Part shown: positions 51,389-52,311 of the stretch, piece after piece
Layout: every line of letters starts with the position of its first letter
How positions within the stretch are numbered: position 1 is the stretch's first letter
Assembly (NCBI RefSeq): GCF_030013205.1
Contig: NZ_CP122648.1
Strand: one strand, 5' to 3'
DNA from: Escherichia coli
GTDB taxonomy: Bacteria; Pseudomonadota; Gammaproteobacteria; Enterobacterales; Enterobacteriaceae
DNA length: 64,000 nucleotides
Made by a program: the position numbers and the translations under genes
Notes under the pieces: model-generated
The model's database searches: none
What the model saw: only the letters and a program-made list of their open reading frames with translations
What the model was told of the DNA's origin: nothing

Positions 51389-51470
51389 ACAGGCCGTGAT
51401 GTGTCGCGGTCTGTTTATCGAATTAAATGCAGATATAAAAAAACCAACCTTTACGGTTGGTTTTTTTTGG
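51389..51470. terminator. tandem intrinsic terminators downstream of yejO
   Basis: Hairpin ACAGGCCGTGATGTGTCGCGGTCTGT then AAAAAAACCAACC-TTTAC-GGTTGGTTTTTTTT (bidirectional). Confidence 0.6.
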
Positions 51471-51476
51471 GATTTT

Positions 51477-51490
51477 TGGTCGCACGAGAG
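51477..51490 (-). other. attR-like junction: partial copy of a tRNA-Pro (proL-type) 3' end
   Basis: Plus strand TGGTCGCACGAGAG is the reverse complement of ...CTCTCGTG(C)CGACCA, the recalled 3' acceptor end of E. coli tRNA-Pro(GGG), with one missing base; sits where K-12 has proL next to yejO and right after the yejO terminators. Confidence 0.4.
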
Positions 51491-52311
51491 TATTCAAAAC
51501 ACGCCAATAACCTCTTGATTTAATTGAAGTCGAAAATTTTAAGTCAAAAATCGTATAGCTTAACGTGTAGCTAAAAATGTTTGCTGCAAAAGTATACAAT
51601 TTTAACCGTTATGACTCCCTGTTATCCGTTATCAAGCTGGTGGATGATCATGGATAACCCGTTATGGGAATCCCCATATCGGCATCAGGCCCACCAGCGC
51701 GACGCATTTTTTTAATTTCGCGGGTGTAAAAATTTGACGGGGCGGGCGGTCCCATAAGCAATGGGGGGTAGGGATTTCGATCCCCCCTCCTGAATGCAAT
51801 TTTTCGTATGTGGCTGTGCGTCCACCAGCTACGCCGGAATGGGGTATTCCGTTTCAACGGAACAGGTATGACGAACATGATCGCACCTTCTCCCGAAAAC
51901 GGTGCGACCTCCATAGAGGAAATGCCTATTCAGATCCCCGGTGATTTTCACCATTCAGAATCTGGAGGGTGAGTTTTCCAGTTTTCCCCAATGGGGGATT
52001 CTGGAACAATCAACGGGTTAGCGATTAAGCTGGCGAGTAATTAAACTGCGAAAATTTCGTAGTTTGTGAATATATTCCGGCTTGCTGGTTAACAGTCCTC
52101 AGATGTGAGGGATGTAGCCAGCGCAATTTTGCGTCGTCGGATATATCAACAACTTAGCACAAAAATAAGTCAGGCAGATACAAACCTCAAATTTGAGGTT
52201 TGCTTGTTTATCAACGGGTAAGGATAATCATCTCCCCTTTAAAGCCCCTTCGAAGGGTTACCCGTAGGCTTAATGTAAGGCTTGGCTGTAGCCTTACCGA
52301 ACGCTCCGCTC

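Follow-up and report, generated by a model that had tools for sequence, protein, structure and literature searches.

Probable attR of a satellite-like island at proL in Escherichia coli and a fixed-point series of attR deletions

A 14-nt sequence at positions 51477-51490 of the 64,000-nt stretch of Escherichia coli DNA analysed here (the window) is very probably the attR core of a 13.4-kb satellite-like island, which a P4-type tyrosine integrase has put into the 3′ end of the tRNA-Pro gene proL. The attR is the integrase-distal junction and consists of a bacterial B′ arm, the core and the island P arm. Integration leaves an intact proL beside the integrase gene (int) at attL, and a second copy of the core is displaced to the yejO side, at attR. 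The features at and around this junction are as follows.

48784-51375, plus strand: yejO autotransporter gene, forming the left chromosomal flank (ORF list; annotated as yejO in ETEC4079)
51437-51467, plus strand: terminator hairpin (A-run, stem, T-run) between the convergent yejO and proL, on the bacterial B′ side (terminator scan)
51468-51476, no strand assigned: bacterial spacer TGGGATTTT, B′ arm, found just downstream of proL in empty sites (identical in the K-12 attB and the window)
51475-51490: 17 bp of identity shared by attP and attB, TTTGGTCGGCACGAGAG (attP core perfect in contigs L017 and L025)
51477-51490, minus strand: probable attR core, the reverse complement of the last 15 nt of proL (CTCTCGTGCCGACCA) without one C/G (sequence comparison)
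51482-51483, no strand assigned: lesion point, where one G of a GG is gone directly left of the invariant CACGAGAG (allele table)
51491-51640, no strand assigned: island P arm, beginning TATTCAAAAC, with only loose mimicry of the tRNA T-arm (6 of 10) (99.7% identical to the right half of L017)
51552-51577, plus strand: two candidate arm-type integrase motifs, CGTATAGCTTAACGTGTAGCTAAAAA (repeat search on the contiguous attP in L017)

A motif search of the whole window located TGGTCGCACGAGAG once, on the plus strand at 51477-51490, and ARAGORN identified no tRNA genes in the whole window. An exact 14-mer is expected about 5e-4 times per window (2 x 64000 / 4^14), and a shuffled window is expected to contain 0.45 matches to the motif if as many as two mismatches are allowed; the bare motif is weak evidence and it is the genomic position that carries the case. 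The 14-mer begins 10 nt past the terminator hairpin, directly after the yejO terminator as an earlier note on this DNA had described; an Rfam search with permissive settings returned nothing but sub-threshold hits, in the terminator region. In K-12 DH10B this hairpin likewise stands ahead of proL and is followed by the flank GGGATTTT and then by TGGTCGGCACGAGAGGATTTGAACC, the minus-strand 3′ end of proL. In K-12 yejO, proL and yejM follow one another with nothing between them, an empty site in the place where the note had expected proL. This comparison confirms the reading of the 14-mer as the proL 3′ end minus one base, and the tRNA-Pro end given in the note was correct: TGGTCGCACGAGAG is the reverse complement of the proL 3′ end (TGGTCGGCACGAGAG) less one G. 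The absent G, one of a GG, maps between 51482 and 51483, so that the window copy retains 14 of the 15 nt with one deletion, plus a TT in common on the left. When window positions 50800-52800 were used as a BLAST query against 5426 complete E. coli genomes, about 5400 of them aligned only as far as window position 51494 (query position 695), and the genome annotation beneath the end of the match was ‘tRNA-Pro’.

Positions 48275-64000 of the window are identical to E. coli ETEC4079 (NZ_CP122643.1), an isolate from a pig in Belgium, save one T in a T-run, and ETEC4079 therefore shows the sequence past the window edge. The extra T, the sole difference in 15.7 kb, belongs to the terminator T-run at 51461-51468. 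In ETEC4079 the minus-strand integrase CDS extends to window-equivalent position 64644, with its start 210 nt from an intact tRNA-Pro(GGG) at 64854-64930, some 854 nt past the window edge, after which yejM follows; the window itself holds the 3′ part of int only. The tRNA was thus where the earlier note had placed it, just beyond position 64,000, and the direct repeat it had proposed as a check was found, since the tRNA end adjoining int reads TGGTCGGCACGAGAG, is preceded by island DNA (CCGATATTCGATT) and is the partner of the 14-mer. From core to core the island measures 13,377 bp in ETEC4079. The attL and tRNA belonging to the window's own copy, past 64000, are deduced from ETEC4079 and would presumably have this arrangement. 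The orientation of int had been misread in the note as being toward the window edge; the gene lies on the minus strand with its start codon outside the window and reads inward, away from the tRNA, in the same direction as proL is transcribed. Every testable prediction of integration into proL was nevertheless borne out by ETEC4079, K-12 and the attP contigs described below. The island brings a terminator hairpin and T-run of its own (positions 16513-16546 of sequence L001, minus strand, approximately window-equivalent 64788-64821), 33 nt downstream of the rebuilt proL. The native bidirectional terminator of yejO and proL stays at attR and the island hairpin takes its place at the rebuilt proL.

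The body of the island and its principal genes are as follows.

51491-64000, minus strand: island body, approximately 13.38 kb in ETEC4079, reaching attL/proL about 850 nt outside the window (missing from K-12)
52783-57415, minus strand: cargo block with a 175-aa ORF, a 679-aa protein, a phrog_11810 protein, a DUF2213/phrog_6216 protein and a NUDIX hydrolase
59114-60529, minus strand: primase/helicase-type replication protein, RepA-family helicase (PHROGs phrog_2850, phrog_906 and others; RefSeq annotation)
62697-62903, minus strand: AlpA-like small HTH protein, candidate excisionase/regulator (PHROGs phrog_66 and phrog_2790, ‘excisionase and transcriptional regulator’)
63403-64000, minus strand: tyrosine integrase gene, C-terminal (catalytic) part, with the start codon at window-equivalent 64644 (ORF list, Pfam, NCBIfam)

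The full integrase, taken from L001, is a full-length ORF of 413 aa with the Pfam domains Arm-DNA-bind_3 (PF13356), Phage_int_M (PF22022) and Phage_integrase (PF00589), the whole catalytic domain model being matched; it scores 560 bits against NCBIfam PRK09692 (cut-off 434) and matches phrog_1 in PHROGs. Downstream of int there are also an Icd-like remnant, a DUF4222 protein and ProQ/FinO and PerC-family proteins. An open frame of 500 codons (61190-62692, minus strand) spans the truncated Icd-like pseudogene annotated by RefSeq, and a YlcI/YnfO gene lies on the strand opposite to it. Within the cargo block the 679-aa protein has a C-terminal transglycosylase domain (phrog_7694), and the 175-aa ORF (52783-53310) matches the terminase small subunit weakly and over residues 1-42 only (E = 5e-7); PADLOC and NCBIfam gave no hits to the cargo genes. 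By gene content alone the element would be classed as satellite-like, with the PICI-type gene organisation of E. coli, and its 13.38 kb lie in the PICI size range of approximately 10-15 kb; as in PICIs, it encodes int, a regulator of the alpA-like type and a primase/replication module. In other strains, related islands at this site also have the int-to-primase backbone, with small-terminase genes among their cargo. Nissle 1917 (L043 22900-34520) and ATCC 25922 carry a cf-PICI-like island of about 11.5 kb at proL, with major-capsid, head-decoration and small-terminase genes and an attR lacking two bases. At the integrase-distal end of the window island there is an apparently non-coding stretch of about 530 bp (51491-52020), which is 88-96% conserved across many proL islands with differing cargo. 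This stretch extends well past the presumed P arm and may be a packaging site, an origin or an RNA; Rfam gave no hits above threshold within it.

We scanned metagenome contigs for CACGAGAGTATTCAAAAC and obtained 21 hits, about eight of them attributable to chance. The scan returned attR junctions together with two contigs, L017 and L025, in which the int-side arm is joined to the far arm in the order CCGATATTCGATT, TGGTCGGCACGAGAG, TATTCAAAAC. Both have a full and perfect 15-nt core (2/2), no tRNA was found within either contig, and on each side of the core L017 matches the window island at 99.7% identity. As judged from their sequence these junctions are attP, derived from circles or tandem copies. 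Terminal overlap was found in neither L017 nor L025. A synthetic attP query detected no contiguous attP junction in the 5426 complete E. coli genomes and there are therefore no tandem copies among those genomes; a search of viral contigs with a gapped attP pattern found nothing, and a scan for CACGAGAGTATTCAAAAC in one genome per species gave chance hits only, in unrelated taxa. The attP and attB have 17 bp in common (TTTGGTCGGCACGAGAG), beyond which there is an instant mismatch on the right (T vs G) followed by loose similarity. The motif TAGCTAYAC occurs five times on the int side of attP, 118-193 bp from the core, and twice on the far side, 62-87 bp from the core (window 51552-51577). A 26-nt block is repeated between both arms with 25/26 identical positions, and the P′ arm beside int carries this block plus three further TAGCTAYAC motifs. 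The repeats are putative arm-type integrase sites. Because the mobile form of the same island has a perfect core, the loss of one G in the window is a derived lesion.

Reading of attR in other genomes and contigs revealed a variable left part next to a constant CACGAGAG. The following left parts were read directly.

TGGTCGG: 0 nt lost, 5 copies
TGGTCG: 1 nt lost, 6 copies, the window and ETEC4079 among them
TGGTCC: 1 nt lost and 1 changed, 2 copies
TGGTC: 2 nt lost, 7 copies
TGGT: 3 nt lost, 2 copies
TGG: 4 nt lost, 4 copies
CTTGG abutting CACGAGAG: 13 nt lost, 1 copy, with bacterial flank past the identity block removed

Full-length copies are over-represented in this set, having been fetched deliberately. 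A less biased census based on BLAST span differences in 41 genomes at least 95% identical to a full-length attR query, with one representative of each class checked by direct reading, comprised 3 full-length, 9 minus-one, 9 minus-two, 6 minus-three and 14 minus-four alleles. By direct reading attL was intact in 7/7 cases and attP in 2/2, attR was mostly shortened, and the adjacent 40 nt of the P arm were unchanged across the attR alleles. Certain genomes differ at the lesion point and nowhere else over approximately 800 nt, namely STEC313 (full) and STEC367 (minus one), and likewise cq9 (minus one) and U90 (minus two), while ETEC1749 has the window's island with a minus-three allele. The minus-one allele is present also in ETEC4079, cq9, STEC367 and two short-read metagenome contigs. 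The island lineage of Nissle 1917 and ATCC 25922 has other arms, with only about 78% nucleotide identity in the integrase gene region, and the same core, and it displays the series full, minus one, minus two and minus four. All of many independent assemblies of Nissle 1917 and of ATCC 25922 have the minus-two allele; this agreement between repeated assemblies indicates that the alleles are real and stable on laboratory timescales.

A number of further observations were made on these junctions. An EcoKI site was considered as a systematic source of sequencing error at the lesion and was ruled out by inspection of the sequence, by short-read contigs and by the agreement of repeated assemblies. 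In E. coli Z1323CEC0013 (L053) the attR has a full core in which the next base is G rather than T (GAGAGgATTCAAAAC), giving 19 nt of identity to the tRNA; the extra G could reflect a crossover or repair tract one base longer, or a point mutation. The TGGTCC form preceding CACGAGAG (L007 and L018) is one base shorter with a G to C change and does not fit simple trimming. A variant of the terminator flank, GGTTGATTTTTT, was found in L039, L041, L011, L016, L026 and L052; the island-bearing genomes with this flank have full-length, minus-one and minus-three attR alleles and the island-free ones minus-two and minus-four alleles, which suggests, from these sequences, fast turnover inside one host lineage.

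The proL gene is 100% identical in 5412 of 5425 genomes. We utilized synthetic queries, made up of bacterial flank, shortened core and tRNA body, to seek exact matches. Of the 13 E. coli genomes in which proL is changed at all, 5 have deletions of the series type: one base is deleted in JNE141411, two in P15-385 and four in STEC384, NADC1036 and O111:H11 8D. All five have an uninterrupted yejO-proL-yejM order. A three-base-deleted proL in an empty site was not found with its synthetic query. ARAGORN did not recognise the two-base-deleted proL and redrew the ends of the others. The shortened genes in empty sites suggest, on sequence grounds, that lesion-bearing junctions still recombine. The earlier note had taken the presence of the 14-mer in strains lacking the island as an argument against integration, and literally this is what is seen in one of the 5425 genomes, island-free JNE141411, where it is a one-base-deleted proL. 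We take it instead for a trace left by this element family, given that proL alleles with two and four bases deleted, matching other attR alleles, exist as well.

The allele patterns point to strand exchange within or beside CACGAGAG. With the crossover in this position TTTGGTCGG would be the B′/C′ core-type half-site and the lesion would fall in bacterium-derived DNA. The deletions keep to a fixed side of CACGAGAG, one allele reaches into the flank, attP and attL are intact, and the lesion is shared by attR and attB, the two sites that have the bacterial B′ arm in common; because of these four facts the lesion is placed in B′-derived DNA and the crossover on the tRNA-body side of it. Excision from a lesioned attR, presumably performed by Int with the AlpA-like protein, would yield a perfect attP and a shortened proL. 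If a perfect attP then entered a shortened proL, the tRNA would be restored and the lesion would again lie in attR.

Tyrosine recombinases cut exactly at the boundary between the core half-site and the overlap region. One possible origin of the missing G, which we put forward tentatively, is aborted cleavage by Int where the B′ half-site meets the overlap, with 1-4 nt (rarely more) trimmed on the bacterial side. A graded series at one phosphodiester is expected from trimming of an enzyme-made break. Excision would in that case move the scar into proL and disable the tRNA, and the island would complement a proL defect that its own family had made, an addiction-like cycle between the satellite and its tRNA target. 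Topoisomerase I-dependent deletions of 2-5 nt in yeast arise through a 3′-phosphotyrosyl link, as short deletions anchored where the enzyme cuts, in many cases with 1-2 nt of microhomology; they offer a mechanistic analogue for a cleavage scar only.

The lesion might also have an origin unconnected with the integrase, either neutral decay or selected ‘grounding’, the proL alleles in empty sites being independent mutations. We regard this too as possible without holding it to be probable. The attR copies are free of tRNA selection and such relaxed selection would let slippage events build up; several alleles can be drawn as slippage in a G or GG repeat, and the alleles are stable per strain, as in the assemblies of Nissle 1917 and ATCC 25922, which all have the 2-nt form. 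Mutation of att sites has in addition been proposed as a route to irreversible lysogeny (PMC6379469). The lesions are however all deletions at one fixed boundary, in a series of 0, 1, 2, 3 and 4 nt, with CACGAGAG and 40 nt of the P arm beside them unaltered; full length is kept in only 3/41 genomes, a second island lineage with the same core shows the series, and 5/13 of the E. coli genomes with a changed proL bear exactly these deletions.

That the core one base short is simply the native attP sequence of the element, with no decay, is highly improbable. Imperfect mimicry does exist in the element, in that the P arm mimics the tRNA only loosely (TATTCAAAAC vs GATTTGAACC), but both attP junctions hold the full TGGTCGGCACGAGAG, one of them in a contig 99.7% identical to the window island. 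Sister genomes that share the island and about 800 nt of identical sequence differ solely at the lesion point, and the 13-nt allele takes out bacterial flank past the identity block. Least credible, to the point of being negligible, is a chance resemblance or an error of assembly or sequencing. Loose matches are common enough for this to be raised, at 0.45 per window with up to two mismatches, yet the 14-mer falls exactly at the homology breakpoint against empty sites and has a partner copy at the other end adjoining int. The allele moreover recurs in ETEC4079, cq9, STEC367 and the two short-read metagenome contigs, and alleles are reproducible over many independent assemblies of one strain.

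Elements with P4-type integrases in the 3′ ends of tRNA genes, with a partial distal copy of the tRNA, are textbook knowledge, and PICI-like islands are common in E. coli; a proL-integrated island with a distal partial tRNA copy is an ordinary feature of a known kind. P4 at leuX exemplifies lambda/P4-type integration at a tRNA 3′ end, in which attP and attB recombine to attL and attR. The proL island shares with such systems a tyrosine integrase with an N-terminal arm-binding domain, an int gene that adjoins the tRNA and is transcribed co-directionally with it, a short core identical in attP and attB (17 bp here), an attP of about 300 bp with repeated motifs in each arm, and a tRNA rebuilt at attL with a partial copy moved to attR. 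It differs in its target, proL, in an identity block that is short and covers the acceptor-stem end only, and in an attR that is usually 1-4 nt shorter at one fixed point. To our knowledge fixed-point shortening of attR has not been described for P4 or lambda. The PICIs of E. coli, including the capsid-forming cf-PICIs, resemble the island in its size of 13.4 kb and in the gene order int, AlpA-like HTH, Icd-like, DUF4222 and primase/helicase, and further in that relatives at the proL site carry small-terminase genes and the Nissle 1917 island capsid and decoration genes. The window copy differs in having just the weak 42-residue small-terminase match and a cargo (the 679-aa transglycosylase-domain protein, DUF2213 and NUDIX) unlike that of described PICIs.

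Loss of excision through att-site mutation has been discussed for ‘grounded’ prophages (PMC6379469). As in these the attR core is mutated in an element that is otherwise intact, its int gene included. The present lesions however form a graded series at one boundary, and the matching shortened proL in empty sites suggests that recombination is still possible, the opposite of grounding. Literature searches returned nothing specific, neither a named proL island nor a described series of att scars. The boundary-anchored deletion series and its mirror in empty-site proL were not found described and are the part worth pursuing.

For the annotation of this window, the junction gives a 13.4-kb mobile island its left limit, a named target in proL and a recombination core, and the allele series is a natural record of the att site over many cycles of integration and excision. 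Should the deletions be plain decay, the result is a routine one. If they are made by the integrase they would show where an uncharacterised P4-type integrase cuts, without recourse to biochemistry; tyrosine recombinases would then be seen to leave mutational traces in tRNA genes, and satellites may both damage and repair their tRNA target.
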